Of a stretch of 64,000 nucleotides of DNA, positions 1-18,967 are shown one piece after another (position 1 is the stretch's first letter; each line of letters opens with the position of its first letter). The position numbers were made by a program, and so were the translations under genes. The notes beneath the pieces were generated by a model, which saw only the letters and a list, made by a program, of their open reading frames with translations, searched no databases and was not told the DNA's origin. The DNA lies in contig JBBQJW010000010.1 in NCBI GenBank assembly GCA_038326325.1, positions 65,187-129,186 on the forward strand, written 5' to 3'. This stretch comes from Chitinophagales bacterium (lineage in GTDB: Bacteria; Bacteroidota; Bacteroidia; Chitinophagales; UBA10324).

Positions 1-2
1 TT

Positions 3-380
3 TCGTCAATGCCATCGTGGTTCGATTTAATTTTAATTCTTTCATTCGCTTGGACGGGTTTGCTATTTGGCTTTCTCAGTTTATGGGACATCGAACGGGT
101 ACTGAAAATTAATTTCAGTCGCAGAAGTGTTACAATCATTTCTATTATGCTATTGTTTATTGGAAGTTTTGGAATTTATGTTGGTCGTTATCTGAGGTGG
201 AACAGCTGGGATATTCTTTCCCAACCTTTAGCATTGATGTATGATATCAGCGACCGTGTGATAAATCCGTTACAGCATCCACGCACATGGGGTATGACAC
301 TTTTTATGGGTGTATTTCTAAATATGATTTACTGGACTTTCAGAATGGTGAGAAAAAGAAATGAGCAGATGAATTATTAA
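3..380 (+). CDS. DUF1361-like integral membrane protein, probably 5'-truncated by the window edge
   Basis: The frame is open from nt 3, with no stop before the first Met at nt 9. It has several hydrophobic helices. The segment GRYLRWNSWD...NP resembles the DUF1361 family from memory. Confidence 0.55.
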   Translation, partial: SSMPSWFDLILILSFAWTGLLFGFLSLWDIERVLKINFSRRSVTIISIMLLFIGSFGIYVGRYLRWNSWDILSQPLALMYDISDRVINPLQHPRTWGMTLFMGVFLNMIYWTFRMVRKRNEQMNY

Positions 381-811
381 AACTATAAATTCATCTTACT
401 GGATGTAACAGTCCTAACTTGTGACATTGAAGCCGAATAAAAAGTAAAGTCCTTATTGTTTTTTGTGTTTAAATATTCCTTTTGATTTTTTGAATCATCC
501 TGAGCACTTTTTGCAAATCCATAGATTTCATGCAAGTAATATCCTACTAAAAAGGGAAATAATTATTAGAATTGAAGACAGTATTTTTCTTTTTATTCCT
601 TATCTCAACAAACAAACTGAAATTTTATTGCGACAAAGTATCATTCAGCGACTGTTACACTTAGCTTTCCGAATAGGACGCTTGAGTAGGTATAGTTAGG
701 CTCAATGGAACAGAAGATTAATATATGTGAATCAGAATTGACTTCAGATATAAATCAATGCTTTATTAAATCTCATTTCAACTTTAGTAAGCGATATATA
801 AATTTTTAGAT

Positions 812-1669
812 TTATAACAATGGAAAAAGTGATTTTACTTCCTTCACAAAATCAGTGAATAATTGTGACTTTTCAATATCAGGTTGCCATGCAAGTCCAC
901 GCTCAATTAAACTTATCTCTTTTAAAATCTTAGCTCCGGGAATTACCTGTCCACGCTCATCGCGCTCGCGTCCCATCAGCCAAAGGTGATCGGAGATAAT
1001 GCTTGTTGATGTAACATCGTGTGATACAATTATCAGTGTATTCAATTCATCGAGCAATGATATGTCGCGCATAAGGTCGAGTACCTGCCGAATGTTGAGA
1101 ATATCTAAACCACTGAACGGCTCATCGAATAATAAAAAATGCTTCGAGCATAATAGCTGCTGTATGATTGCAATTCGTTGCCTCTGCCCCCCTGAAAGCT
1201 CCGAAGGGTAATAATCTTTCCTTGACATGAGCCCGAATCGGTCTAAATAAAAATCGATTTTATCGTGTTGTTCCTTTTTTGTGAATGAAGGAAATCCTTT
1301 TCTGGCTGCCACTAACAGGTTTCCCATTATAGTGCGGTGTCGGAATAGAGGATAGTTTTGCTGTAACACTCCAACAGAACCTCGCTCAACAGGAAGTTGT
1401 TCGGCTCCAATTAAAACCTCGCCTGTAAGATTATAAACAGGATTTTTTCCGGGCAATGGTTTAATAAGTCCAGAAATTACTTCGAAGAACTTTGTTTTAC
1501 CCATACCAGATGGCGCAAGTAGTCCGACTACCTGTCCCTGTCTTACCCCCGAACGATGAACATCTTTTATTTCACAGTTCACATTACGAAGTATAACCGA
1601 ATCACCATAACTGAGTGACATATTTGAAACCTTAAGTAGCGTATTGCCAAATGAATGTTCTTGCGTCAT
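812..1669 (-). CDS. ABC transporter ATP-binding protein (NitT/TauT nitrate/sulfonate/bicarbonate-like family)
   Basis: Walker A is APSGMGKT, the ABC signature is LSGGQRQRIAI, and Walker B is LLFDEPFSGLD. It is the last gene of a co-oriented five-gene cluster. Confidence 0.9.
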   Translation of the reverse strand: MTQEHSFGNTLLKVSNMSLSYGDSVILRNVNCEIKDVHRSGVRQGQVVGLLAPSGMGKTKFFEVISGLIKPLPGKNPVYNLTGEVLIGAEQLPVERGSVGVLQQNYPLFRHRTIMGNLLVAARKGFPSFTKKEQHDKIDFYLDRFGLMSRKDYYPSELSGGQRQRIAIIQQLLCSKHFLLFDEPFSGLDILNIRQVLDLMRDISLLDELNTLIIVSHDVTSTSIISDHLWLMGRERDERGQVIPGAKILKEISLIERGLAWQPDIEKSQLFTDFVKEVKSLFPLL

Positions 1670-1723
1670 TGAATAATTTTTAGAATAAAATCATGAGTGA
1701 AATAAAATTCATTTTAATTTTCA

Positions 1724-2518
1724 TCAATTACGGTTTTTTGAATATGGCATGAACCATACTTTTATTGCACCAAGTAACCAGTCCTGTAACACTCCGAGTA
1801 CTAATACCGATAACTGAATGGCGAATACCATGTCGAAATTCAGAAACTTATTTTGCCTCCATAATAAAACCCCCACTCCACCATCGGCCTGTGAAATAAC
1901 TTCCACCATTGTAAGCATCGCCCATGTAATGGCAAAGTTTTGCCGTACAATTTCAAAAGCCATATCAAATTTCCCAAGTATTACCACTTCCCACATTACC
2001 TGCCATTCATTCATTCGCAGTGTGCGGGCAAGATTAAATTCTTCAACCGGAATTGCCTGAATTGCTGAAACCATGCTTGTAATAAAAAAGACCGACATAC
2101 TGAAAACAAGCAGCAACACTTTTGTGCCATGAGCATCCGGCATCATTCTTTGAAACACAAATGTTAATCCAACCAAAGTAAGAAACCTGAACTTACTACT
2201 TACAACTGGAATGAATTTGAGTATCGGAATTTTAATAAGGTAAGTAATAATTAATCCGATGGCAGTAGCAATCAAAATAGATTCTAAACTTAGAGCAAGA
2301 CTTGTCATAAGCTCTCCTGCTAAATTGAACTGGCTAAACAAAACACCAAGCGCTTTAAATATTTCGTATGGTGTCGGGAAATAATAAAGATTAGTTGAAC
2401 TCCAAAGCAATAGAACAGCAAGTGCTTCTATTCCAAACAACCAACCCAAAGCAGTTTGACTCAGTATTGAGTTTGGTGTGATAAGTGGTTTTATCTTATT
2501 CCATCCTGGGCGATTCAT
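1724..2518 (-). CDS. ABC transporter permease (NitT/TauT-type, BPD_transp_1-like)
   Basis: About 6 predicted TM helices. It lies 54 nt upstream of the ATPase gene on the same strand, and its size (264 aa) is typical of SsuC/TauC-like permeases. Confidence 0.8.
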   Translation of the reverse strand: MNRPGWNKIKPLITPNSILSQTALGWLFGIEALAVLLLWSSTNLYYFPTPYEIFKALGVLFSQFNLAGELMTSLALSLESILIATAIGLIITYLIKIPILKFIPVVSSKFRFLTLVGLTFVFQRMMPDAHGTKVLLLVFSMSVFFITSMVSAIQAIPVEEFNLARTLRMNEWQVMWEVVILGKFDMAFEIVRQNFAITWAMLTMVEVISQADGGVGVLLWRQNKFLNFDMVFAIQLSVLVLGVLQDWLLGAIKVWFMPYSKNRN

Positions 2519-2654
2519 TTTAATTTTTGTTTTGAGTGATGAAAGAAAAAAAATTAAAATAGTTAAGTAAAGAAAATATACTTAGGTATTAGTATCGGTC
2601 AATTGAAAGAATAACTCGACTATTAAATCTTCAATTTTTAAACAAAAAGAAAAA

Positions 2655-4430
2655 TCAATTTCCACTTGGTCGGCTCATAGTAATATCTACACGACGGGTA
2701 CTCCGGTCTGCAAATCCCTGTACTTTTATAAAACGCTTTTCAGGAAATGAAGCTTGATCCTTTTTCTGTAACCAGTTTTTTACAGCCTCTGCTCTTTGTT
2801 GCGCAAGTAAATCATTTGCTGATTGCACACCTGTTGCATCCGTGTGACCTTCAATTGTCAGATACAAACTCATCCCATTTATGCATTGCGCATACAGATC
2901 ATTTAACTGTGCAATTGCATCAGGTAGAAACTGCGATGATCCCGTTTCGAAATTAATGGACCATGAACGGCTGCTGACTTTTTCAACTTTCGTTGAACTG
3001 TTATAATTCGTTTCAGACGGGGCAGTAATTTCGGTTCCGTTTGTTTTATCCTGTAAATCGCGAAGGAACCTTAAGTTAACTACCTGTGAATAATCAGGAT
3101 AGGTTGGCATTAAATCTTTATAGTAAAAAGTATCAATGCTTCCGAAAGTGTTGTAAATCACTTTGTAAATATTTGTACCACCATTCAATCCGAAGTAAGC
3201 AAAGTTATCAGCAAGATTATGAACCATTGAGCCCCCGCAAAAAATCTGCTCACCCGTTTGGCCATCAATAGCAGGTGCTCCGTTATAATATCTTTTCCAA
3301 TAAGCACCATGTGCTTCTTTATGGTCGTTATAAATAAGTGAACTGATTTCCCCGGCTTTAGCTAAAGCTTCAGAATATGATTTTACAAAATCACCGCCTT
3401 CTGTTACAGCAAGAATCAATTCCTCAATTTGAGCGGCATGGTCTTCATTAAATTTATGAATACTGATAATTGTATTTGGCATTTGCGATGGATAATCTTT
3501 TGTTGAGGCAAGTGTCACCAATCCGCCTTTTTGTTCTACGGCATTTACATCACCTGGTGTCCAAGTAACAATCCCATTTGCAACGACCTCAATGGTTTTG
3601 CCAGTCAGTTTTCCGCTCTTAACTATTTTGCGGGTTTCTTTTACATCGTTAATATAATTATTTGCTGCATCGAGATATGTTCCTACAGATTGAAAATTCA
3701 TTGCATCAGCATCGTAAGTAGTCGGATCAGGGTTTACAGGAATATTATTCGCTGATGCATATTGAACCGCAATGTTCCAGTCGCCATCGCGTACTACTCC
3801 AGCTATTACAGACCCTCGAAGTTTTTGCGGATCTTCTTTCATTGCCGGAGTGCCCATTAGTTTATCTTCACCAAAAGATCTTCCACATGTGAAAATTATT
3901 TCAGCACGATATTCCTTTCCTAATTTTTCAAGATTTTTATTCAGACTGAAAAGAAACTGAGGCGCTCCGTCACCCATGATGTTACAGAATTGAATTCCTT
4001 TCCATTCACCTTCAGGATTATCTCTGTAAGAAGTTGCGAAATCCAGTAAGCTGTTTGCCATTGGCCCATAATCATCTTGCCTTTCAATATTTAAATTTAA
4101 ACTATGCTTCTCCATCAAACTTCCTTTTGTGGTTTGCGGACCGCCGTTGGCGAGGTTAAGACCCATTTGTGAATTCCATTCCATTTCCCACATTGTCCAA
4201 ACCTTACCTGAAAGATTTGCTTTTTCATCAGAAGGTAATACGAGAGGTCCTACAGTTGATTCGGCGTTCTTAGGCGCGCTAGGCAAATCAATTTTAGTTG
4301 TTGTTTTAGATACAGACACTTTAGGTGCGAGAATTCCATTTTTCAGAAAAAACCAGTACCCACAGAATAAAGCTATTCCGATTATAAGAACAACTAATAC
4401 TTTCCCAATTGGTGTTAATCCTTTTTTCAT
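2655..4430 (-). CDS. Membrane-anchored periplasmic-binding-protein-like domain fused to a C-terminal OmpA-like peptidoglycan-binding domain
   Basis: There is an N-terminal TM anchor (KVLVVLIIGIALFCGYWFF) followed by a roughly 430-aa alpha/beta region. The C-terminal part, FETGSSQFLPDAIAQLNDL...LTIEGHTDATGVQSANDLLAQQRAEAVKNWL, matches the OmpA_C pattern (F..gs..l...GHTD..G....N..LS..RA..V). It sits directly upstream of the ABC permease and ATPase. Confidence 0.7.
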   Translation of the reverse strand: MKKGLTPIGKVLVVLIIGIALFCGYWFFLKNGILAPKVSVSKTTTKIDLPSAPKNAESTVGPLVLPSDEKANLSGKVWTMWEMEWNSQMGLNLANGGPQTTKGSLMEKHSLNLNIERQDDYGPMANSLLDFATSYRDNPEGEWKGIQFCNIMGDGAPQFLFSLNKNLEKLGKEYRAEIIFTCGRSFGEDKLMGTPAMKEDPQKLRGSVIAGVVRDGDWNIAVQYASANNIPVNPDPTTYDADAMNFQSVGTYLDAANNYINDVKETRKIVKSGKLTGKTIEVVANGIVTWTPGDVNAVEQKGGLVTLASTKDYPSQMPNTIISIHKFNEDHAAQIEELILAVTEGGDFVKSYSEALAKAGEISSLIYNDHKEAHGAYWKRYYNGAPAIDGQTGEQIFCGGSMVHNLADNFAYFGLNGGTNIYKVIYNTFGSIDTFYYKDLMPTYPDYSQVVNLRFLRDLQDKTNGTEITAPSETNYNSSTKVEKVSSRSWSINFETGSSQFLPDAIAQLNDLYAQCINGMSLYLTIEGHTDATGVQSANDLLAQQRAEAVKNWLQKKDQASFPEKRFIKVQGFADRSTRRVDITMSRPSGN

Positions 4431-4484
4431 TTTTTTGATTTTTTCTTTTTGCTTTTTAGCAATTTTAAAATTGATAAATGGTTT

Positions 4485-5471
4485 TTATTTTTTATCAAAA
4501 AGGTCATCGAAATTTTTTAAATCAGAAGATCCGCCCGATTGCGGTGCACTGGAATTGCCTCCTTGCGATAATTCCATTTTTTCGCCAACAGGTGCTAACA
4601 TTATTTCCATGCTCCGGTTACCCATTTGATCGAGCATCCTTAATCCTTCATCAGCGAATGCTCCATTTTCAATATCAATTTTATCAATCACACTTTGCGA
4701 TTCGCGCATGAAGCGTTCCATTTCAGCCGCCTTAAAACTGATGTTAGATTCTACTAATTCAACACTTTGATCGAAAGCTGCCTTCTTATCTGGATCCCCT
4801 TTAAAAATGCTCATTGCAGATCGTAAAGCATTGTAACCTCGTTTTACAGTTTCATACTCTACTTTTCTGATTCTCACTTCGTTTGTCATATCAGTGATTG
4901 CAATCTCTGCATTTTCATACATCTTGATTAAAACTTTTTTCACTGCTTCCATTTTCAACGAGAGTGGAGTGAGTTTTTCAATTAAATCCTTTTGCCTTCC
5001 AACTTCACGGGAGTAAAGTGTAACAGAACTTGTATTATTTTTTGACTTTGCAGAGGCTGCAAACTCCAGATTCTTTTCTTGCTCATCTTTTGCATCATTA
5101 ATAGCTCTTTTCAGTTTTATCAGTTCACCATCGAGTTTGGTTATTTGTTCATTCATTCCTTCGCGTTTATTTCGAAGGTCAGCAATGTAAATTTCCATAA
5201 TGGCAATTGGATCAATGCGAATTATTATTCCTGTCAGCGCGCGGCAACCCATTTTAAAAAGATACCACACACCGGTTCTAACCCCCGGATCAAGTATTGC
5301 ATAAATTATAGCAAGTAAAACTACTCCGAGTACAATTGCATAAATTGTATTTGCAAGAAGCGATATAATAAATGGCATGAGATAATAAAATCCTACTGCA
5401 GCACCTATTATTAAAAGAATTCCTGTTATACCTTCCGGCTTTTGCCAGAATGATTTTTTAGTTGGATTCAT
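4485..5471 (-). CDS. Membrane protein: about 3 N-terminal TM helices plus a long coiled-coil region, possibly PspA/IM30 (ESCRT-III)-like
   Basis: The N-terminal 95 aa are hydrophobic. Then IDPIAIMEIYIADLRNKREGMNEQITKLDGELIKLKRAINDAKDEQEKNLEFAASAK resembles the start of PspA helix 1 (DP...M..YI.DM). The remaining ~230 aa are heptad-rich. The CDS call is solid, but the family call is only inference. Confidence 0.6.
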   Translation of the reverse strand: MNPTKKSFWQKPEGITGILLIIGAAVGFYYLMPFIISLLANTIYAIVLGVVLLAIIYAILDPGVRTGVWYLFKMGCRALTGIIIRIDPIAIMEIYIADLRNKREGMNEQITKLDGELIKLKRAINDAKDEQEKNLEFAASAKSKNNTSSVTLYSREVGRQKDLIEKLTPLSLKMEAVKKVLIKMYENAEIAITDMTNEVRIRKVEYETVKRGYNALRSAMSIFKGDPDKKAAFDQSVELVESNISFKAAEMERFMRESQSVIDKIDIENGAFADEGLRMLDQMGNRSMEIMLAPVGEKMELSQGGNSSAPQSGGSSDLKNFDDLFDKK

Positions 5472-5488
5472 TTAAGATTGGGATTTTT

Positions 5489-6124
5489 TTAGTTAATGAA
5501 TTTGGTAATACTTTCAATGTGATTTTGAATCTGTGTAACAACAAAGTTGTATGTGTTTTTAAATGCTGTAGTTGTTAGTGCAATTGTGCTTCCTGCGTTT
5601 TGAACCTTTTCTTTCAATTCGCTTATTTCACTTTTATTTGACAATAATTCACGGGTAATTTCTTCATTGCGATTTTCAAGTAATGTAATTTTATCGCGCG
5701 ACTGCCCTACTTCCTTTTGCTCTTTCTGTTTTGCAGAAGCATTGAAGTCGTCATATTCTTTAGATAGAATTTCGAGATATTGTTTTGCTGTACTTAATAA
5801 TTTTTCTTTGGTAACCCCTTGAGCCTTTAACATGGCAAAAGCTGCTTTTAGTTTACTCGTTTCATCTGGTATATAGTCCATTTCTGCCACTGCTACCATC
5901 AGTTCGTAATAATCAGGCCCCTGAATATTAGCTTCCCTGAGTGTTTCATCAAAGTGTGAAAGCATTTTTTGATCTGGCTCTCCCGGTCTTTGATTTGAAT
6001 TAGAATAAACCTGATTAGGATTAACATTGTCAATTGGATTGTACGCTTTGGAAGTGAAAACTTTTGAAGGAGGTGGTTGAGTTTCCTTTGTTCCACTATT
6101 CCAGAATATGTCCTTAAAGCTCAT
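5489..6124 (-). CDS. Hypothetical soluble coiled-coil protein, first gene of the cluster
   Basis: 211-aa ORF located 17 nt upstream of the next gene. It has a low-complexity N-terminus (Q/P/N-rich) followed by predicted helices. I recognise no family. Confidence 0.55.
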   Translation of the reverse strand: MSFKDIFWNSGTKETQPPPSKVFTSKAYNPIDNVNPNQVYSNSNQRPGEPDQKMLSHFDETLREANIQGPDYYELMVAVAEMDYIPDETSKLKAAFAMLKAQGVTKEKLLSTAKQYLEILSKEYDDFNASAKQKEQKEVGQSRDKITLLENRNEEITRELLSNKSEISELKEKVQNAGSTIALTTTAFKNTYNFVVTQIQNHIESITKFIN

Positions 6125-6362
6125 GTTACTTTTTTATTCAATTTTGTTGAAATAAAATTTTGTTCTATTAACTAATTGCAAATCAATTTGATTGTATTTT
6201 TTTACTGAAAAATTCCTTTTCTAATACCTACCTCAATTTTTAGATTTGAGTCGTCGCAATTATAATAAAGGTTAAACAAATAAAGTAAAATATAATAGCA
6301 CAATCCAAAATCATTTTGCTATAAAAAATCAGGGAGCCACAAGTGAGGTCTCATATAAGCCC

Positions 6363-7076
6363 CTAAACACTTAATTGCTCAGACCATTTCAATTCATCAG
6401 GAAGTGTTTGGTTACTGAATTCAAGATGTAACACTCTTCGTTTTTGATTATTTGTTGTTCTTTTTGAAGAGTGAAGTAAAAGTGGCTTCATAATCATGAC
6501 TCCCCCCTTTTTTACACAGCAAATTGTTTCAGTTTCACTTTCCCAAATAATTGTTTCGGGACGGTAAATACCTTTGAGATGAGACCCGGGAATTACATTC
6601 AGTGCGCCGTTATTTTGATTCACATCATCCAAATGAATTCGCAAAGTGAAATTATCCTTTAAAATTTCAAGGGGTGGTTGAACTGCAAATTGATTTTGTT
6701 TTACCGTCCATGGCCCGAATCCCTCAATGGCAATCCGCTTGTCAACTGAAATTGTTAAATCCTGATGATAAGAAACAAACCAATTTGATTTTTCGGGTTT
6801 ATCAAAATAAATTGATTTAGTTAAAAAATAATCTTCTCCAAAAAGTTGTTTGATCAGATCAATAAATCTTTTTGTAAAAATTAATTTCCGAACCTCCGGT
6901 AATACTATCATGAACTGCCTGATAGCAAACAAATCAATTGATTTTCTGATTAGTGGATTCGATTTATCGATAGTATTTATTACAAAAAGAAACTGCTCAA
7001 TTTCACTTTCAGAAAAGATGTTTTCGATAACAGCAAATCCGTTTACAATAATTTCCTTTCTATAATTTTCTAACAT
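6363..7076 (-). CDS. Phytanoyl-CoA dioxygenase (PhyH) family Fe(II)/2-oxoglutarate oxygenase
   Basis: The motifs SYHQDLT (HxD iron ligands), NGALNVIPGSH and a distal LLLHSS..R are characteristic of the PhyH family. Confidence 0.75.
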   Translation of the reverse strand: MLENYRKEIIVNGFAVIENIFSESEIEQFLFVINTIDKSNPLIRKSIDLFAIRQFMIVLPEVRKLIFTKRFIDLIKQLFGEDYFLTKSIYFDKPEKSNWFVSYHQDLTISVDKRIAIEGFGPWTVKQNQFAVQPPLEILKDNFTLRIHLDDVNQNNGALNVIPGSHLKGIYRPETIIWESETETICCVKKGGVMIMKPLLLHSSKRTTNNQKRRVLHLEFSNQTLPDELKWSEQLSV

Positions 7077-7308
7077 TTCTAAACATTCCTTTTTGTTTAC
7101 TTTTAAATGAATTCTTCACAATAAATTTAAGTCTCTTGTTTTCCTTTTTCCTGTCTTATTCAAAATCATTGACTTATTTTTTATAGTAACTAATTTAAAT
7201 GAATTTGTTCAATAAATTTCAATTTCCCAAAAGAGTGAATACATTCCTAATGATTTGTTCTTTTCCTTATTTACAAACTATTGCTAATTAACTTTCGAAA
7301 ATTTTTTT

Positions 7309-10071
7309 ATGGTAACAGGTTTACTTTTTATTGCATTAGTTATATGGTTTTTTGAATCAAGGAGCCAACGAACGCGTCTTAATATTTTAGAAGATGCTGT
7401 AAGAAAACTTAACCAGAGGATTAAAGAATTTACTCTGCCAAAAGAAGAATCTAATTATAAGGAAACACCAAAGAAAGAAACGAACCCCTCTCCTATTGCT
7501 AAAAAAATTATTCCTGAAATTAAGGAAGTAACCATTGATGAAATAAATAAAGTTAAAGCTGGCGTCGAAAACATCTTCACCAAACCTACTGAGAGTGTAA
7601 CATTCGAAAATATTATTGAGAATAAAGAAATAACTCCTCCGAAAAAATCAAGAACCTATGCGGAGTGGGAATCGCTGATAGGAGGGAAAATTTTAAACCG
7701 GATTGGTGCGCTTGCGCTCATTATAGGAATGGGTTTTTTTCTAAAATATGCTTTCGACAATAACTGGATAACAGAAGCAATGCGTGTGGCAATCGGAATC
7801 GGAACAGGAGCAATATTGCTGTTTAGTGGACATTATTATTCGAAAAAAAGTTTTCAGATCTTTTCGCAGGGACTTGTTGGTGCAGGTATAGCCATACTTT
7901 ACCTGTCTGCTTATTCATCATTCAATTATTATCATCTCGTAAGTCAATCAGTCGCCATTGGAATCATGTCGGTTGTTACAGCTGTTACTTTCTGGCAGGC
8001 ATTCAAGTACAATTCAATTGTGATTGCCATCTTTGGATGGCTCGGTGGTTTTATTACTCCATTCTTGGTGAGTACAGGAAATGCAAATGAAGCAGGGCTA
8101 TTCACCTACATAGCTTTGCTGGATGTTGGTTTATTATTTATAATTCTTAAAAAAGAAAAATGGAATGTACTGGAACCGCTAACTCTTGCAGCAACCATTG
8201 TTGTTTACCTCTTGTGGTTCTACATTGACTACAGTGAGAACAAACTTTTACTTACAGTCTTTTTTCTTTGCATCTTCTGGTTACTATTTCTTGGGGTTGA
8301 GTTAACAAGAATTATTAATAAGGAAAGAAACATTTTGCTGTTACATCAGTTTGTTTCAGTCGTAAATGCCTCTTTCTTTTTTATCGCACTATTCAATATT
8401 GTTGATTCGCAATTTCATGAATGGATGGGAGCTGTTACAGTTGTTATAGCAACAATTTACCTGCTCGTTTATCTTTTGATAAAACAAAAAAGAGCAGGAG
8501 AAGAATGGTTACTGATTCGCTACCTACTTTCTGTCATTTTATTATTGACAATCGCTGCAGGTATTCAGTATAAAAATTTCGATCTGAGTATTGCCTGGGC
8601 CATTGAATCTATTGCGCTTGCTGCAGTTGCTGCCAGGTATAAAAATTTAATAATAGTTTATTCAGCATTGGTGCTTCTTGCATTGTCGTTCCTGAATTTT
8701 ATTATATCTCCTAATGCATTTTACATGTCGCCACAGGTTTTTCATTTCATTTTAAATTGGAGATTGGTTTCATTAATCACAATGATGAGCGCTTCAATTG
8801 CTTCTTATTATTTGCTATCGCGGGTTCAGAATAAATATTCTTCCTTCATAAATTCAGGACTTATTTATTCATGGATTTTATTTTTTTTCATTCTGCTAAG
8901 TATTGAAACAAAGGATAAATTTTTACAACTTGCTTTCTTCTCAGATAATTCACACAACAGATTTTACCTGTATATTTTATTATTTGTTTTAGGAATATTA
9001 TGGATGCTGTTTGCAGTTCCACTGATGTATTTCGGATTAAAGAAAAAAATTCATCCGTTATTCTTCAGTGGATTATCCGTTTCTGCACTTTCAGTTCTTA
9101 TCATTTCACTGAGAAGTTTACTTCCGGCTGATCCAATGGCATTGTATTATCCAATAGTTAATCTGCGGGTATTATCACTTTCAGTAATTATAACAGGGCT
9201 TTTCATCCAGTTAAGATGGATGAATAAAGAAATTCTTTTCCCTTGGTTTAACGAATTGATGGGCGGCATTAGGGTAACAATAGCAGCAGTAATTTTAATT
9301 CTGATAACTGTTGAAACGCGCGATGTATTTACAATGCTTGGTTCTGATGTAAATGAAGTATGGCGCAGATTTTTTTCAAACAACCTTGTATTTATGTTAA
9401 GTATTGAATGGATACTACTTGCAATTCCTGTTTTATATATAGCGATAAAGAAAAACAGAAACGAGTTATTTTTTACCGGGTTGACTGTTACAGGTGCAGC
9501 AATTCTTACTGTAATGGTTAGCGATTTCGTTTCTTACAATCCGATTGAATTGTTTTATCCTCTTTTAAATATGAGAGCAGTGTCATTGATTATAATTTCC
9601 TCTTGCATTTTTATTCAGACACGCATGATAGAGAAAATAAATTATTATCCGTGGATTCACATTCTTTTAAATAGCATGCGTGTGACACTTGTCACCCTGA
9701 TTTTTATTTTCATCACCACAGACACGATGGATTTTTTCGAGAAAAAAATATTTCTTGTTTCGAACATTCATAACTCTGCAATTTCTGTACTAATTAATAA
9801 CTATCGCAATCAGCAACAACTTTCAATATCTGGAATCTGGTTGCTTTATTCAGTAATCATAATGGTAATTGGAATTTACAGAAGCAGATTTAATGTTCGA
9901 ATTGCTTCCATTATTGTGTTTGGTATTACAATCGTCAAGGTTTTCTTTTTCGACCTTTCCAATTTAGATACTCTTCATCGTATCATTTCATTCATGGCAT
10001 TAGGAGTAATACTGATTTTCGTTTCGTTCCTTTACCAGAGATTCAAGCATTTAATTTTTAAAGCAACCTGA
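7309..10071 (+). CDS. DUF2339-like very large polytopic membrane protein
   Basis: 920 aa. A short N-terminal TM helix and coiled-coil segment is followed by more than 20 hydrophobic helices in repeated blocks. This architecture is typical of DUF2339. Confidence 0.75.
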   Translation: MVTGLLFIALVIWFFESRSQRTRLNILEDAVRKLNQRIKEFTLPKEESNYKETPKKETNPSPIAKKIIPEIKEVTIDEINKVKAGVENIFTKPTESVTFENIIENKEITPPKKSRTYAEWESLIGGKILNRIGALALIIGMGFFLKYAFDNNWITEAMRVAIGIGTGAILLFSGHYYSKKSFQIFSQGLVGAGIAILYLSAYSSFNYYHLVSQSVAIGIMSVVTAVTFWQAFKYNSIVIAIFGWLGGFITPFLVSTGNANEAGLFTYIALLDVGLLFIILKKEKWNVLEPLTLAATIVVYLLWFYIDYSENKLLLTVFFLCIFWLLFLGVELTRIINKERNILLLHQFVSVVNASFFFIALFNIVDSQFHEWMGAVTVVIATIYLLVYLLIKQKRAGEEWLLIRYLLSVILLLTIAAGIQYKNFDLSIAWAIESIALAAVAARYKNLIIVYSALVLLALSFLNFIISPNAFYMSPQVFHFILNWRLVSLITMMSASIASYYLLSRVQNKYSSFINSGLIYSWILFFFILLSIETKDKFLQLAFFSDNSHNRFYLYILLFVLGILWMLFAVPLMYFGLKKKIHPLFFSGLSVSALSVLIISLRSLLPADPMALYYPIVNLRVLSLSVIITGLFIQLRWMNKEILFPWFNELMGGIRVTIAAVILILITVETRDVFTMLGSDVNEVWRRFFSNNLVFMLSIEWILLAIPVLYIAIKKNRNELFFTGLTVTGAAILTVMVSDFVSYNPIELFYPLLNMRAVSLIIISSCIFIQTRMIEKINYYPWIHILLNSMRVTLVTLIFIFITTDTMDFFEKKIFLVSNIHNSAISVLINNYRNQQQLSISGIWLLYSVIIMVIGIYRSRFNVRIASIIVFGITIVKVFFFDLSNLDTLHRIISFMALGVILIFVSFLYQRFKHLIFKAT

Positions 10072-13851: not shown

Positions 13852-16209
13852 ATGAAAGCGACATTAATGTTCCTGCACAGGAACGCAAAGTGCTCTTCTT
13901 TTTTTCTTTTTCTGCTGTTCACAAATTCGTTTTTGCTTAAGGCGCAAAATGGGGAGGATGCAGATGACAAAACTCTTTCACCTTACTTTGTCGTACTCAG
14001 CGAGCATCCTGGAACCGACAATCTTCCGCTGAAAGAAACTTCGGCAAGTGTAAATATTGTTGGAGTGATTGCAGATGTAACAGTGAAGCAGGTGTATATC
14101 AATTCAGGATTAAACACACTCGAAGCCATTTATACTTTTCCGCTTTCGACAAGGGCTGCAGTGTATGGGATGCAGATGAAGATCGGCTCGCGCACCGTTA
14201 CAGCAAAAATTGAAGAGAAGAAAAAAGCGCGCGATGATTATGAAAAAGCGAAGACGGAGGGCAAGCGCACTTCACTGCTGGAGCAAAGTCGTCCCAATGT
14301 GTTTACGATGAATGTCGGCAACATTGCAGCGAACGACACCATAACGGTTGAACTGAAATACACCGAACTGCTCATTCCTGAAAAGGGAATTTATTCTTTT
14401 GTTTATCCAACTGTTGTAGGTCCGCGGTATTCGAACAAGTCAAAAGAAACAGCAAGCGCCGACGACAATTTTGTGAGCACTCCTTACACCAAGGAAGGTG
14501 TGATGCCCGCTTACCGGTATGGAATTAATGTTCAGATTCATTCGGGTATACCGGTACAGAATGTGGTTTGCATCACTCATAAAACTGTGGTTGCCTATAC
14601 TGATTTATATAACGCAACTGTGATGATAGACCCTGCCGAAACCAACGGCGGAAACAGGGATGTGATTATTAACTATTCGCTTCAGGGAGATAAAATAGAA
14701 TCGGGTGTGATGCTCTACGAAAACGGAGACGAAAATTTTTTCATGGTGATGATTCAGCCACCGAAAAAAGTGTTGAAAGAAGAAATTCCTCCGAGAGAAT
14801 ATATTTTCATTGTAGATGTGTCGGGTTCAATGCACGGATTTCCGATTGACCTCTCTAAAAAATTATTGCGGAATCTTATTCTTAACCTGAACCCAAACGA
14901 TAAATTTAATGTGCTGCTTTTCTCAGGTGCTACTGCTACCATGAGTCCTTCATCGGTGGATGCGACAATTGAAAATTTCAATAAGGCAGTTGCATTTCTT
15001 GATGCTGAAAGAGGATATGGCGGAACAGAATTGCTTCCGGCAATGCAGGTGGCGTATGCACTTCCGCGCACTGACCCCGACCTCTCGCGGTCGTTTGTGA
15101 TTGTGACAGACGGATATGTTTCCATTGAAAAAGAAACTTTCGATTACATACGCAACAACACTGGCAATACTAATTTTTTCAGCTTCGGAATTGGTAGCTC
15201 AGTGAACCGATACCTGATGGAAGGCATGGCATTCATGGGTGGTGGTGAAGCAATGATTGTGACCAAGCCGGAATTTGCTGATGAACAGGCGGAGAAATTC
15301 AGAAACTACATTAACACGCCTGTACTCACTCAGATAAAAACAGACTTCGGAAATTTTTCTGCTTATGATGTGCAGCCTTCTTCGTCGCCCGACATGCTTG
15401 CGGAGCGCCCGATAATTATTTTCGGAAAGTACACCGGAAGCCCGACAGGAATTATTACTGTAAAAGGTAAAGCAGGAAGAAATACTTACAAGCAATCGTT
15501 CGACCTATCGCAGGTGAAACCGCTTAAAACAAATTCAGCACTCCGTTATTTATGGGCGAGAGAAAAAATTAAATTGCTCGATTATTATGATTCGGATAAC
15601 GGATACAGTAATAGCGGAGATAAATCAGAAGGAGAAATATTAGCACTCGGATTAAAATACAACCTGATGACCAACTACACTTCTTTCATTGCAATTGATG
15701 AAGAAGTTATTCGCGACAAGGATGGAAAATTAGTGACTGTTACACAGGCAAATCCGTTACCTGAAGGTGTATCAGATTATGCAGTTGGGTTTGATATGAC
15801 TGTAAGCGGAAACAGTTTGGGGTCGATAAATGCCAATGGTTCTTCTATCTATAATTATTCTGTAACAACGGAAAATGAAATTACCACCGAGGATTCATCT
15901 TATCTGTTTGCTGAAGCAATGCCAATATTTCCGGGTGGAGAAGATTCACTTGCTGCCTTCATACAAAGAAATATTATATATCCGTCATGTGAAAAAGACA
16001 AAGGTGTTACAGGAGTAGTGTATGTTTCTTTCTTTGTGGAAACTGACGGAAGCATTTCGGATGTGAAACTGATGAAAGGAATAAGTAATGCACTGAATGA
16101 GGAAGCGCTGCGCGTCGTGAAGAAAATGCCAAAGTGGATTCCGGGAACACTGAATGGAAATGCTCAAAGAGTGCAGATGACATTGCCTGTTAAATTCAAG
16201 TTGAAATAG
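13852..16209 (+). CDS. Secreted VIT domain + von Willebrand A domain protein with a C-terminal TonB_C-like domain
   Basis: It has a signal peptide and a VIT-like N-terminus (LPLKETSASVNIVGVIADVTVKQVY...FPLS). The vWA MIDAS motif is FIVDVSGSM. The C-terminus AMPIFPGGEDSLAAFIQRNIIYP...GVVYVSFFVETDGSISDVKLMKG...EEALRVVKKMPKWIPG matches the TonB C-terminal fold pattern. Confidence 0.85.
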   Translation: MKATLMFLHRNAKCSSFFLFLLFTNSFLLKAQNGEDADDKTLSPYFVVLSEHPGTDNLPLKETSASVNIVGVIADVTVKQVYINSGLNTLEAIYTFPLSTRAAVYGMQMKIGSRTVTAKIEEKKKARDDYEKAKTEGKRTSLLEQSRPNVFTMNVGNIAANDTITVELKYTELLIPEKGIYSFVYPTVVGPRYSNKSKETASADDNFVSTPYTKEGVMPAYRYGINVQIHSGIPVQNVVCITHKTVVAYTDLYNATVMIDPAETNGGNRDVIINYSLQGDKIESGVMLYENGDENFFMVMIQPPKKVLKEEIPPREYIFIVDVSGSMHGFPIDLSKKLLRNLILNLNPNDKFNVLLFSGATATMSPSSVDATIENFNKAVAFLDAERGYGGTELLPAMQVAYALPRTDPDLSRSFVIVTDGYVSIEKETFDYIRNNTGNTNFFSFGIGSSVNRYLMEGMAFMGGGEAMIVTKPEFADEQAEKFRNYINTPVLTQIKTDFGNFSAYDVQPSSSPDMLAERPIIIFGKYTGSPTGIITVKGKAGRNTYKQSFDLSQVKPLKTNSALRYLWAREKIKLLDYYDSDNGYSNSGDKSEGEILALGLKYNLMTNYTSFIAIDEEVIRDKDGKLVTVTQANPLPEGVSDYAVGFDMTVSGNSLGSINANGSSIYNYSVTTENEITTEDSSYLFAEAMPIFPGGEDSLAAFIQRNIIYPSCEKDKGVTGVVYVSFFVETDGSISDVKLMKGISNALNEEALRVVKKMPKWIPGTLNGNAQRVQMTLPVKFKLK

Positions 16210-16258: not shown

Positions 16259-17452
16259 ATGGTGAATAGAAAAAAAATCTTCTTCCGGTTTTTTAGTGCG
16301 ATTATTCTCTGTATGATTTTTTGTTCGTGCTGCGAAAACAAAACAAACGAAAAATCTGTTACAGTAATTCCGCTCACTCAAACGGATACCATTGCGCGAA
16401 CGAGCATCACATTTATTCTTGGCAAAGACGACAACACACGAAACCCGTATTACGCACTGGCTAATCAGTATTATCGTCTGAGCGAAACGGAGAAAACAGA
16501 GATAGTGATTGATTCACTCATTTCACTCACCGAGGTTCGCAATTATCTCGCTGTGCACCGTCCGGTAAATAAGCGTCCGTGGGGATTGATAAACTTAGTG
16601 ACACACGGAAACGAATTCGTTGACCTGAGTGTGTATGTTTCGCCTACGGGTTCGCGTGTGTCGGAAGAAAGTTTGCAAAAAGCAATTGACGATTCTGTTT
16701 TTCTGCCACTTGATTCTTTAACGATTGATGATAAAACACTTTTCAATTTACATGGATGTGCAGTTGGGAATAATACACGGTTGCTGAATCTGCTTGGCGT
16801 TGCGTTTGGCGGGGGTCCCACTCCCGCGCTTGTGAAGGCATCACGGATGTTTGAATATTATGCTTACCTCTCGCCGAATAAAAATCCGCAGAGCATAAGG
16901 CATTACTACGCGCGGGTGTGGTACGGATATTACAAAGTTGATTCGCTGCCCGACGAACAGATTTTAACGGCGCAACTGAAAAACAAATATCCAAACGACT
17001 CGGTTGATTGGGTACAAGCACTGCGCAGGCAATATCCTTCAGACCCTTCACAGGTGTATCACATGAACCTGCACATACCAGTGGTATGGGAAGATTTTTA
17101 CGAAAGCAAAAATGAGATGCCTGACCTGCGCACCAAAGCAAAGCAGGACAAATGGGTGGATGATAAAACGGAATTTCTTGCGCTGCTCTCCAAAACGGCA
17201 ATACCCCGCGAATATTTCCGCATTAAATTTTACACTCTCACCTACAGCCGCGACTCCGGTATCATTTATTCCGGTAAGGTAAAAGGTATGGCAGGCATCA
17301 TCTGCATCATAAAACCAGAAGTGAAAGCCGTCGATGTACAGGGCATAAAACACCTCCCTTACATTCCTGCCGATAACGACAATCAGTTTTTCAGTTACTC
17401 CGTTACGAGACAAAATGAAAGTAATGGGTTGATGAGAATTTTACCATTATAA
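16259..17452 (+). CDS. Lipoprotein of unknown function with a THGN...LHGCAVGN motif pair
   Basis: The lipoprotein-like signal MIFCSCC is present. The gene starts 50 nt after the VIT-vWA gene on the same strand and shares its elevated GC. I recognise no family with confidence. Confidence 0.65.
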   Translation: MVNRKKIFFRFFSAIILCMIFCSCCENKTNEKSVTVIPLTQTDTIARTSITFILGKDDNTRNPYYALANQYYRLSETEKTEIVIDSLISLTEVRNYLAVHRPVNKRPWGLINLVTHGNEFVDLSVYVSPTGSRVSEESLQKAIDDSVFLPLDSLTIDDKTLFNLHGCAVGNNTRLLNLLGVAFGGGPTPALVKASRMFEYYAYLSPNKNPQSIRHYYARVWYGYYKVDSLPDEQILTAQLKNKYPNDSVDWVQALRRQYPSDPSQVYHMNLHIPVVWEDFYESKNEMPDLRTKAKQDKWVDDKTEFLALLSKTAIPREYFRIKFYTLTYSRDSGIIYSGKVKGMAGIICIIKPEVKAVDVQGIKHLPYIPADNDNQFFSYSVTRQNESNGLMRILPL

Positions 17453-17607
17453 AATCATTGAAGAAATTGGAAAGGAAAAAATCAAAGTGATATCTGATAT
17501 TGTAGCAATAATTTTTTTTGTGTTACAGAACTGAAGCGAAACTTAATTATACAAATAGAAGATAATATTTAATAAATATTAATCTCAGTAATAAAATAAT
17601 TATTAAG

Positions 17608-18264
17608 CTAATTCTTCAAAGTTGTAAAAACTCCAAGCGGTTCAGCATATAATGAATTATCCTTACTACTTCCATCACATTTACTTGCAACTGTCCAGAT
17701 ATATTTTGTTTCTGGATTTAGATTAGAGAGCAGGAAATAATTTCCGTTTCCCTCTCCAACACTTACCATTACCCATTTCGGCCTCTCATTCTGAGTTTTA
17801 TAACGAATTATATACTTAGTACTATTCAGTGGTCCTGTCCAGTGTAACAGTACAGAAGTTGAAGTTATACTATCTACCTTAAGGTTAAATGGAGTTTCAC
17901 AGGGAAACTCAGTCGTGAAATTTACTTTAACAGAATATTCTGAAGTGTCTTTAAAATCAATATTGCAATAAGAAAGTATCTGTAATTCATAAGTCGAGTT
18001 CGGAGCAAGGTTAGAAATTTTCGTTATTGAGTCAGAAGGTAAAACACGCATTGAACTCCAAACCGATGTTCCAACTACTCTTGCCCTTAATTTATACCCG
18101 CAAGAACCTTTGACTTTTGACCATGAAATTTTCGCAAAAGAACTACCAGCTTTTACTGCTTTTAAATTTTCAGGAGTCAAACATTTATTTTGGGCCGTTA
18201 CATCACAAACTGAAAAAATCAATGCCACAATCAATGCAATGGATGTATTATAAAATTTAAACAT
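17608..18264 (-). CDS. Secreted protein with two fibronectin type III-like domains
   Basis: It has a signal peptide (ALIFSVCDVTAQ). The FN3 pattern occurs twice: P.NL......S..A.ISW......Y.L..R... L.P.T.Y...I. Confidence 0.7.
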   Translation of the reverse strand: MFKFYNTSIALIVALIFSVCDVTAQNKCLTPENLKAVKAGSSFAKISWSKVKGSCGYKLRARVVGTSVWSSMRVLPSDSITKISNLAPNSTYELQILSYCNIDFKDTSEYSVKVNFTTEFPCETPFNLKVDSITSTSVLLHWTGPLNSTKYIIRYKTQNERPKWVMVSVGEGNGNYFLLSNLNPETKYIWTVASKCDGSSKDNSLYAEPLGVFTTLKN

Positions 18265-18268
18265 TTTT

Positions 18269-18967
18269 CTATTTTAAAGTTTTGAATTTAATATAAGGAG
18301 CAAAGAGGGGCGAAATTCCTCTTTCAGCACTGCCACAAATTGATTTTAAGGAAAGCACATATTCAGTATCAGGTTTCAGGTTTATTAATATATAGGCGGG
18401 TTGATATGTAGCATCAACTGTAACACTTAACCAATTTTTTATTTTTTGTTCATTAGGAGCATAAAACAATTTGAATTTTTTTGAATCGAGAGTTGAAGAC
18501 CATTCAATTGCAGCTGAAGAACTATCAATATTAGTTACCATTATTTTATTAGGAAGTTCGCAACCACAGCTAGTGATTAGCGTATCAGCCAGAGAAAAAT
18601 CAGAGGTATCATCAATATGACCGCTGCACATTATTCCCATTTGAACAATGTAAACAGAAACTGATTTCATCTTTGGAATCTGCATCACAGTATCAGGCGC
18701 ATTGACCATAAAATAATTCCAAACAGAGTCATGAGGAGATTTTATTCTTGCACGATAAGCAAACGCCCCGGGAATTGAATTCCACTTTGTATTAATTGTT
18801 TTACCCGTGATACTTACAACAGAAAAATTTTTAAGCCCATTACATTTAGATTGAGAATAAGAATTCTGATAAAAAAAAATCAATAACAAAAAAATAATCG
18901 AGCCTATAAAAGAATATCTGGCTTCAGATAAATTTCGTATCAGATTAGCATTTACTTTGTTTTCCAT
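18269..18967 (-). CDS. Membrane-anchored or secreted protein with two fibronectin type III-like domains
   Basis: It has an N-terminal hydrophobic anchor and two FN3-like modules (NFSVVSITGKTINTKWNS..GAFAYRARIK; NKIMVTNIDSSSAAIEWSS). Its ATG overlaps the stop of the upstream giant gene by 1 nt (ATGA-type junction at 18967). Confidence 0.7.
   Translation of the reverse strand: MENKVNANLIRNLSEARYSFIGSIIFLLLIFFYQNSYSQSKCNGLKNFSVVSITGKTINTKWNSIPGAFAYRARIKSPHDSVWNYFMVNAPDTVMQIPKMKSVSVYIVQMGIMCSGHIDDTSDFSLADTLITSCGCELPNKIMVTNIDSSSAAIEWSSTLDSKKFKLFYAPNEQKIKNWLSVTVDATYQPAYILINLKPDTEYVLSLKSICGSAERGISPLFAPYIKFKTLK

Follow-up and report, generated by a model that had tools for sequence, protein, structure and literature searches.

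We analysed a 64,000-nucleotide stretch of a contig from a Chitinophagales bacterium (JBBQJW010000010.1; the whole stretch is called the window here), in which five adjacent genes, A to E, occupy positions 812–6124 of the minus strand. We believe that this locus is the Bacteroidota form of a conserved two-part envelope module whose parts act together, and give this reading a probability of about 0.6. One part pairs a soluble coiled-coil protein (A) with a membrane-anchored protein that resembles PspA/IM30 and ESCRT-III proteins (B); the other is an ATP-binding cassette (ABC) importer (D and E) whose binding protein (C) carries both a transmembrane (TM) anchor and an OmpA-like domain. The reading draws on gene content, on domain and fold assignments, on topology from hydropathy and on a strong reciprocal linkage of the genes. 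Systems of this kind have already been described, so far in silico and through comparative genomics alone: Ravi et al. (2024; mSystems, PMC11237479) independently report analogous operons and the same idea. New here is the Bacteroidota form, which lacks a canonical PspA and an AAA+ ATPase and has gene A in first position.

Results

Genes A to E form a conserved cluster

In the open reading frame (ORF) listing of the window, the five genes follow one another in the order A (5489–6124; 211 aa), B (4485–5471; 328 aa), C (2655–4430; 591 aa), D (1724–2518; 264 aa) and E (812–1669; 285 aa), all on the minus strand. The intergenic gaps are 17 nt (A–B), 54 nt (B–C), 136 nt (C–D) and 54 nt (D–E), and these coordinates bear out the co-oriented cluster proposed by a model that had read the sequence without database searches (the original prediction). 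Across related loci the median gaps are 23, 50, 86 and 3 nt.

Linkage was followed in two sets of loci. The set anchored on B holds 83 loci (80 species loci and three others, with three copies of the Flavilitoribacter locus among them), and the set anchored on C holds 80 metagenome loci, for which counts were limited to loci with enough flanking sequence. In 64 of the 83 B-anchored loci the gene directly upstream of B is A, and we regard these two genes as the core pair. The patterns seen were AB (25 loci), ABCDE (21), B alone (17), ABC (14), ABCD (4), BCDE (1) and BC (1), so that A, B and C occur together in about 40. The complete arrangement was found in Saprospiraceae, Bacteroidales, Chitinophagales, Tenacibaculum xiamenense, Lacihabitans and two metagenome-assembled genomes labelled Spirochaetes. 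When C was the anchor, B was directly upstream in 49 of 52 loci, D followed C in 53 of 56 and E was present in 40 of 43; where both flanks could be read, all five genes were found in 21 of 28.

The three C-anchored exceptions keep a divergent gene for a TM and coiled-coil protein. It lies upstream of C in two of them (L085:5541-7292 and L159:3471-4589), where the A- or B-like genes have diverged past recognition, and after E in the third (L150:10537-11502), which is the order of the published Candidatus Handelsmanbacteria operon. No PF04012 or Snf7 match was obtained for these three genes; that of L150 gave only a weak, sub-threshold match to CheZ, and the other two had no Pfam match.

The A–E arrangement is not a chance one, since its gene order is repeated in more than 60 independent loci, far beyond what chance would give. 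The dependence runs one way: C is almost never without a B-like neighbour, whereas A and B can stand alone. A check of gene neighbourhoods that had been suggested with the original prediction thus finds both coiled-coil families uncharacterized and kept beside the ABC genes across many genomes, rather than scattered among well-characterized families. Neither an AAA+ ATPase nor a canonical PspA forms a cluster among the recurrent neighbours in the 83 loci.

Gene B: a membrane-anchored protein modelled with an ESCRT-III-like fold

Hydropathy and hydrophobic moment give B two TM segments (residues 18–36 and 42–60), which fall within a hairpin of residues 15–60 (5292–5429, minus strand) outlined by hydropathy and by the helices of an AlphaFold2 (AF2) model. 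Since there are two such segments, both ends of the protein and its helical core are predicted to be cytoplasmic. A third TM segment, which had been proposed at first, is unlikely: residues 62–83, directly before the helical hairpin of the core, more likely form an amphipathic helix, with a hydrophobic moment of 1.42 and K/R residues. With the TM hairpin, this helix may be a functional analogue, by descent or otherwise, of helix alpha-0, the membrane-binding element at the N-terminus of PspA and Vipp1. The other half of that early description, a coiled-coil protein, holds, and the family is uncharacterized.

The AF2 model has helices at residues 15–39, 42–60, 62–83, 88–143, 147–220, 228–264 and 273–291, with a predicted local distance difference test (pLDDT) of 72 and values above 90 in the hairpin. 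The core (residues 88–291; 4599–5210, minus strand) is delimited by the model, by Foldseek and by the PF04012 alignments of relatives. It consists of a hairpin (88–143 and 147–220) followed by helices 228–264 and 273–291, and their order and lengths fit alpha1, alpha2/3, alpha4 and alpha5; the model thus displays the alpha1–alpha2/3 hairpin with succeeding alpha4 and alpha5 that characterizes the ESCRT-III fold. Among the top 20 Foldseek matches in the PDB, almost all are Vipp1, PspA, CHMP, Snf7 or CdvB. They include Vipp1 (6zvr, 8qhx, 7o3w), CHMP1B (6tz9), CHMP2A/3 (7zcg), Snf7/Shrub, CdvB and Asgard ESCRT-IIIB, with probabilities of up to 1.0; the PspA structure 7abk stands at rank 42.

Sequence comparison of relatives points the same way. 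PF04012 (PspA_IM30) was matched at E ≤ 0.01 by 19 of 40 members of the B family, and these alignments are collinear over profile positions 22–192 of 220, equivalent to residues 89–268. Six members that were scanned individually scored 24.6–30.9 bits, all below the PF04012 gathering score of 33.9, so B does not enter the PspA_IM30 family by that measure. On the model, B has an ESCRT-III/PspA-like fold, and it is probably a distant homologue of PspA and ESCRT-III proteins. The suggestion of a PspA/ESCRT-III relationship made in the original prediction accordingly survives for B, through the PF04012 matches of its relatives and through Foldseek.

The family is moderately large and has two signatures of its own. 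Searches returned at least 257 related proteins, and at E ≤ 1e-30 the family comprises 698 clusters at 50% identity among 1.84 billion representatives; at least 572 species genomes carry it. Mean column identity is 57%. A near-universal motif, KSFWxxPEG, lies at the N-terminus before the first TM segment, on the predicted cytoplasmic side, with columns K6, S7, F8, W9, P12, E13 and G14 invariant. After a disordered tail, the window protein has NFDDLF near its C-terminus (residues 320–325; 4497–4514, minus strand), identified in the family alignment. The corresponding C-terminal motif, (N/S)xYDx(L/F)F, is found in nearly all 80 orthologues, with or without an adjoining A or C.

Gene A: a soluble coiled-coil protein of an unnamed family

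A has no TM segment by hydropathy and is predicted to be soluble. Its AF2 model (pLDDT 83.6) shows a disordered region (residues 1–50), three short helices (52–100) and one long helix of about 105 residues (106–210). A single-sequence search returned almost nothing; a profile built from the neighbouring genes of related loci returned 112 relatives, all of them unnamed, and a family profile made without the window protein matches window A at E = 1.5e-33. The SFKDIFW motif at the N-terminus of window A corresponds to the KSLF motif of the family.

The PspA/ESCRT-III hint in the original prediction does not extend to A. Pfam assigned no family to any of 44 members, PF04012 and Snf7 included; hhalign gave a probability of 6.4% against the B family and 1.4% against Escherichia coli PspA; and Foldseek found no PDB match with E < 1 and no noteworthy match among viral folds. 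On these results we rejected the idea that A is another PspA/ESCRT-III protein beside B, and the Foldseek comparison proposed earlier thus leads to the ESCRT-III superfamily for B and to no PDB structure for A. We also considered A as an MIT-like three-helix reader of the C-terminal motif of B and dropped the idea, as its helices are only 10–13 residues long and Foldseek gave no MIT match.

Relatives of A come in a long form, with a linker of 50–80 residues that joins the N-terminal motif to the helical domain, and a short form of about 176–195 aa, in which about 22 residues separate the two. C accompanies the long form in 38 of 48 cases and the short form in 0 of 8; in these counts, six long A proteins missed by the motif pattern were reassigned to the long form. 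The short-form genes (L016, L019, L025, L039, L054, L059, L062, L064, L070, L072, L078 and L081) lie in A–B loci without C, and because the short form was seen only in such loci there are probably two A–B subfamilies.

Gene C: a binding protein with a TM anchor and an OmpA-like domain

C has one TM segment (residues 11–29; 4344–4400, minus strand; hydropathy) with lysines before it, from which the binding and OmpA-like domains are predicted to be periplasmic. The OmpA-like domain (residues 494–575; 2706–2951, minus strand) matches PF00691 at E = 5.1e-12 with 46.4 bits (cut-off 27.2) and has the PDB relatives 7rjj and 5wtp. In an alignment of window C with 35 orthologues from related loci (36 sequences; alignment A4), T530, D531, G534, N539, L542, R546 and A547 of this domain are invariant. 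D531 and R546 are the Asp and Arg of the peptidoglycan-binding motif, both kept in window C, and peptidoglycan binding is predicted.

The binding domain emerges at the level of the family. Window C is very divergent (about 21% identity, with several insertions), and Pfam detects in it the OmpA-like domain and no binding-protein domain. Within alignment A4, OmpA was matched by 36 of 36 sequences, NMT1 by 35 (best E-value 1.6e-16) and NMT1_2 by 34. The family profile finds SsuA (2x26; 4e-15), TauA (6ssy; 6.5e-13), 3e4r (deposited as 'Nitrate transport protein') and many OmpA-like domains in the PDB. Residues 2–570 of window C are collinear with its relatives in tblastn, and a family profile made without it covers residues 253–570. 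A class-II binding domain of the NMT1/SsuA/TauA type is thus assigned to C from its family, and the early description, in which a TM-anchored binding-protein-like domain was joined to an OmpA-like one, proves sound.

The short cytoplasmic tail of C is conserved as well: L5 and T6 are invariant in alignment A4, and K10 and L12 nearly so. Invariance of L5 and T6 at about 21% overall identity would be unusual for a mere signal anchor, and suggests a specific cytoplasmic or intramembrane contact. A stator of the MotAB/TolQR kind, made of C and B, was considered and dropped, no conserved acidic residue being visible in the TM segments of the alignments. A separate observation is that phrog_25518 (526 positions, function unknown) matches residues 3–129 of C at E = 1e-9, and a C-like protein may thus have entered that catalogue through a prophage or through a viral contig that was mis-binned.

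Genes D and E: a type-I permease and an ABC ATPase

D matches BPD_transp_1 with 26.7 bits, barely over the cut-off of 26.4, and is found at E = 5.7e-20 by a family profile from which the window protein was left out. Its best NCBIfam matches are TauC (23 bits against a cut-off of 342), NtrB (22 against 209) and SaoP, all far below threshold. E matches ABC_tran at E = 3.8e-21 and its own family profile, made without it, at E = 4.3e-37; its best NCBIfam match scores 103 bits (cut-off 343). Walker A (APSGMGKT), the Q-loop, the signature LSGGQ, Walker B (LLFDEP) and the H-loop (SHD) can all be read in the translation, which predicts a competent ATPase and agrees with the ATPase of the original prediction. 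Neither protein reaches a curated subfamily score (TauC/SsuC/NtrB for D; TauB/SsuB/NtrCD for E), and only the generic BPD_transp_1 and ABC_tran models are passed. As the scores lie far below the curated cut-offs, no subfamily or substrate can be transferred to D or E. The earlier assignment of D to the NitT/TauT type is therefore kept in part: D is a type-I permease, for which 'NitT/TauT-like' is a reasonable if loose label on present similarity, and the curated subfamilies do not claim it.

Two kinds of metabolic gene adjoin the importer genes in related loci. A Haem_oxygenas_2/TENA-THI-4 iron-enzyme gene (E-values about 1e-26, and 1e-15 to 1e-18) lies between D and E in seven loci (L011:13902-14447, L012:11777-12466, L013:4544-5269, L015:12851-13534, L049:13749-14432, L069:8616-9299 and L082:5102-5785). 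NMT1/ThiY-type binding proteins and TenA cooperate in thiamine-pyrimidine salvage, and for this reason the insertion may be a clue, if a weak one, to the transported solute. Genes for a methyltransferase resembling protein arginine methyltransferases and for a PF10014 2-oxoglutarate/iron (2OG-Fe) dioxygenase follow E in four loci from different families (L001:14666-15562 and 17170-18120; also L040, L051 and L053), which recalls the importer-plus-dioxygenase cluster tauABCD.

Genomic setting

The presumed promoter region upstream of A (6125–6362, minus strand; 238 nt) is AT-rich, with a GC content of 0.30. It contains no Rfam element. Sigma-70 sites were no more frequent in the scan than in shuffles, and the terminator scan gave no convincing terminator inside the A–E cluster. 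Since these scans were uninformative, the status of A–E as an operon is a prediction from spacing and synteny only. The Bacteroidetes-type promoter pattern TTTG-N17-23-TANNTTTG had no match in window positions 1–64000, against 6.8 ± 2.4 in shuffles; this depletion may come from limits of searching by pattern.

The genome from which the window derives belongs to Bacteroidota and has a GC content of about 35%; the window encodes two proteins with a type-B sorting domain of the type IX secretion system (T9SS) and one with Por_Secre_tail. The genes flanking the cluster encode a PhyH dioxygenase and the membrane proteins DUF1361 and DUF2339. The PhyH-family Fe/2OG dioxygenase gene (6363–7076, minus strand; E = 4.7e-17) lies 238 nt upstream of A on the same strand. 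It was considered as a part of the module and rejected: it has a counterpart in 0 of 163 related loci and for that reason is probably outside the module. Divergent from it and from the cluster is the gene for a 920-aa polytopic DUF2339 membrane protein (7309–10071, plus strand), which is not kept near the module in other loci.

Further away, a 785-aa protein with VIT and vWA domains and a terminal TonB_C domain is encoded at 13852–16209 (plus strand); it scores 408 bits against the 'marine proteobacterial sortase target' model (cut-off 552), and the combination is odd for a Bacteroidota genome. Two adjacent giant ORFs (18967–29349, minus strand; 1834 and 1625 aa) contain PKD, Ig and SBBP beta-propeller repeats, and the first of them terminates in a T9SS Por_Secre_tail sorting domain. 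An anti-phage defence system was rejected for the cluster, PADLOC returning weak coiled-coil and ABC noise and PHROGs nothing meaningful.

Discussion

A working model of the module

We propose that B is held in the inner membrane by its two-helix hairpin, with the ESCRT-III/PspA-like core exposed to the cytoplasm and the amphipathic helix standing in for helix alpha-0 of PspA. By analogy with PspA, Vipp1 and ESCRT-III, B would polymerize on the cytoplasmic face of the membrane and stabilize or remodel it, and A would be its soluble coiled-coil partner or regulator, presumably in contact with it. C, D and E would form a type-I ABC importer of the NitT/TauT kind for a small solute, working in the direction of uptake, in which C is anchored at its N-terminus to the inner membrane and tied non-covalently to peptidoglycan by its C-terminal OmpA-like domain. 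Both parts would then meet at one membrane site, through contact of B or A with the transporter or through common regulation, and solute uptake would be coupled to PspA-like protection or remodelling of the membrane, with C fixing the site relative to the wall. The original prediction that the locus is not a plain nutrient importer fits a binding protein that is TM-anchored and fused to an OmpA-like domain, and whose linkage to a PspA/ESCRT-III-like protein is conserved.

Alternatives to a module of cooperating parts

Several results weigh against this working model, and they bear on other explanations as well. That A–E might form one physical machine across inner membrane, transporter and wall is a hypothesis. 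No regulator gene for the cluster was found, and no riboswitch or other cis-RNA hinting at a substrate was detected in window positions 1–7500 or in seven related loci. The ESCRT-III assignment of B depends on sub-threshold matches of relatives and on a model with a pLDDT of 72, because direct sequence searches were negative: window B has no match to PF04012 at E ≤ 0.1, the B profile finds generic coiled coils and no PspA or Vipp1 among PDB sequences, and the hhalign comparison with PspA of E. coli reaches a probability of 1.8%. The Foldseek E-values are weak (6e-3 to 1.5) and the root-mean-square deviations large. These results on B would suit B, and A with it, being generic membrane-associated coiled-coil scaffolds whose likeness to PspA and Vipp1 reflects a bias of the comparison towards long helices. 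We regard that as very improbable, since in many family members about 170 of the 220 PF04012 positions align in collinear order, the structural matches come from the ESCRT-III superfamily in bacteria, archaea and eukaryotes rather than from random coiled coils, the order and lengths of the B helices fit the fold, and an independent study has assigned the TM-anchored proteins encoded in analogous operons to Snf7, as divergent members (PMC11237479).

A Psp-like stress pair (A–B) and an ordinary importer with a wall-tethered binding protein (C–D–E) might also be independent units that merely travel together, through shared regulation or genomic hitch-hiking, the solute being sulfonate-, nitrate-, pyrimidine- or betaine-like. 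A–B stand without C–D–E in roughly half of the loci anchored on B, which means that the pair can work alone. The pattern AB was seen in 25 loci and B by itself in 17 of the 83, and the short-linker A subfamily was never seen with C. The TenA/Haem_oxygenas_2 genes inserted between D and E, like the methyltransferase and 2OG-Fe dioxygenase genes, fit an ordinary nutrient role for C–D–E and suggest catabolism of the solute, as in tauABCD; the 136-nt gap between C and D in the window could hold an internal promoter. Against such independence stands the one-way dependence of C on a B-like neighbour, which even the three exceptional loci keep in divergent form. The linkage is kept even where C has diverged to about 21% identity and A to about 22–30%, across orders and phyla, and it persists when the order changes and the B-like gene follows E, as in L150 and Handelsmanbacteria. 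C also remains with A–B where D and E are absent. On balance we consider independent units unlikely.

The 14 B-anchored loci in which C accompanies A–B without D–E tell in more than one direction: they count against the working model, and they suggest a role for C beyond substrate delivery. The latter would agree with a module in which the ABC system is an engine or sensor and not a nutrient importer, C reporting ligand or strain from the wall on the periplasmic side and the ATPase cycle of D–E driving or gating assembly and disassembly of the B polymer. The cycle would there stand in for the Vps4-type or other AAA+ ATPases that act on ESCRT-III, in a way comparable to FtsEX with its ABC scaffold for mechanotransmission. 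This possibility agrees with the conservation of the cytoplasmic tail of C and with the failure to assign a substrate family, all NCBIfam matches of D and E being far below threshold. An AAA+ ATPase gene belongs to the Handelsmanbacteria operon, whereas none is among the recurrent neighbours of the Bacteroidota loci examined, which leaves E as the only ATPase. Yet D has an ordinary type-I importer fold (BPD_transp_1) and C an ordinary class-II binding domain akin to SsuA and TauA, the A–B–C loci without D–E would lack their engine, and we know of no type-I importer that acts on an ESCRT-III polymer. We therefore think such an engine decidedly unlikely, and more doubtful still the specific proposal that Bacteroidota have come to use the ABC transporter in place of the AAA+ ATPase of related operons, as energy source or gate, with A–E as one trans-envelope machine in which ATP hydrolysis by E and the sensing of ligand or strain by C control the assembly of B. 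The module of cooperating parts, with an importer that imports, is the explanation we prefer.

Implications

The module bears on how bacterial relatives of ESCRT-III are regulated without a Vps4-like ATPase, and on what they do beyond a small number of model Psp, Lia and Vipp1 systems. It offers a compact and widespread test case, an anchored ESCRT-III-like protein that is genetically locked to an ATP-driven transporter and a peptidoglycan anchor, and it is directly testable because culturable hosts (Tenacibaculum, Lacihabitans and Flavilitoribacter) carry it. If the parts interact, solute uptake, membrane maintenance and cell-wall attachment would be linked in one complex. Even without such interaction, A and B would define two uncharacterized families, and C would be an unusual binding protein tethered to the wall. 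Were the ABC system to be the engine, an ESCRT-III system driven in this way would to our knowledge be unprecedented.

Comparison with known systems

The original prediction could name no known system with these genes. Analogous operons are nevertheless listed by Ravi et al. (2024; PMC11237479), in their section on association with AAA+ ATPases, Text S2.2 and Table S3, and these authors propose that membrane remodelling and solute transport are linked; we found no other account of this operon type in the literature searched. The first interpretation of the locus is thus partly supported: the system is real and unusual, and it is not undescribed. Table S3 of that study gives the orders PspA, PBPB+OmpA, TM(s), ABC-ATPase, TM+Snf7 and AAA+ for Ca. 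Handelsmanbacteria (OGG56892.1); PspA, PBPB and TM+Snf7 for Archangium (AKJ06548.1); and PspA, Rmar_0091 coiled-coil and TM+Snf7 for Salinibacter (CBH24266.1). The window shares with these operons a TM-anchored protein of the ESCRT-III superfamily with two N-terminal hydrophobic segments ('SIG+TM' in the published description), as in B, and in it, too, one predicted operon combines a binding protein fused to OmpA with an ABC permease and an ABC ATPase. The TM-Snf7 gene of Salinibacter comes after a gene for an additional coiled-coil protein, of the Rmar_0091 type, just as B comes after A; A may correspond to that protein, a candidate equivalence that compares gene position only. The published operons differ in beginning with a canonical PspA and, in Handelsmanbacteria, in ending with a double AAA+ protein, neither of which is found in the window or in the Bacteroidota relatives examined. 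The order also differs (A-B-C-D-E here, PspA-C-D-E-B-AAA+ in Handelsmanbacteria), and the relatives of B give sub-threshold matches to PspA_IM30, not to Snf7; their equivalence with the published TM+Snf7 proteins is likewise a candidate one.

The Psp and Lia systems (PspABC-F of E. coli, LiaIH of Bacillus subtilis and PspA-YdjGHI) resemble the A–B part in encoding an effector with an ESCRT-III fold at the cytoplasmic face alongside small partners. PspA and LiaH are soluble and are recruited by separate membrane anchors (PspB/C and LiaI), whereas here the ESCRT-III-like protein B is itself predicted to be anchored. PspB, PspC, PspF, LiaI, Toastrack and a band-7 partner are all absent from the locus, which has an ABC importer and an OmpA-like domain instead.

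For C–D–E the nearest relatives are the NitT/TauT importers of TC classes 3.A.1.16/17 (TauABC, SsuABC, NrtABCD/CmpABCD and ThiXYZ), which likewise combine a class-II binding protein of the NMT1/SsuA/TauA type with a BPD_transp_1 permease and a single ATPase gene. Known members have free or lipid-anchored binding proteins, without an OmpA-like domain or ESCRT-III-like partners, and the cyanobacterial NrtA and CmpA are membrane-tethered, as C is predicted to be; the window differs in the OmpA-like domain of C and in the ESCRT-III-like partner encoded at the locus. In its architecture C recalls MotB, with an N-terminal TM segment, a periplasmic region and a C-terminal OmpA-like peptidoglycan-binding domain, and the Asp and Arg that contact peptidoglycan are conserved in C as they are in the anchors of MotB, PomB and ZorB and in YiaD and Pal. 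The locus encodes no partner of the MotA, TolQ or ExbB type, and the periplasmic region of C, unlike that of the MotB-type anchors, is predicted to be a solute-binding domain rather than a plug or linker.

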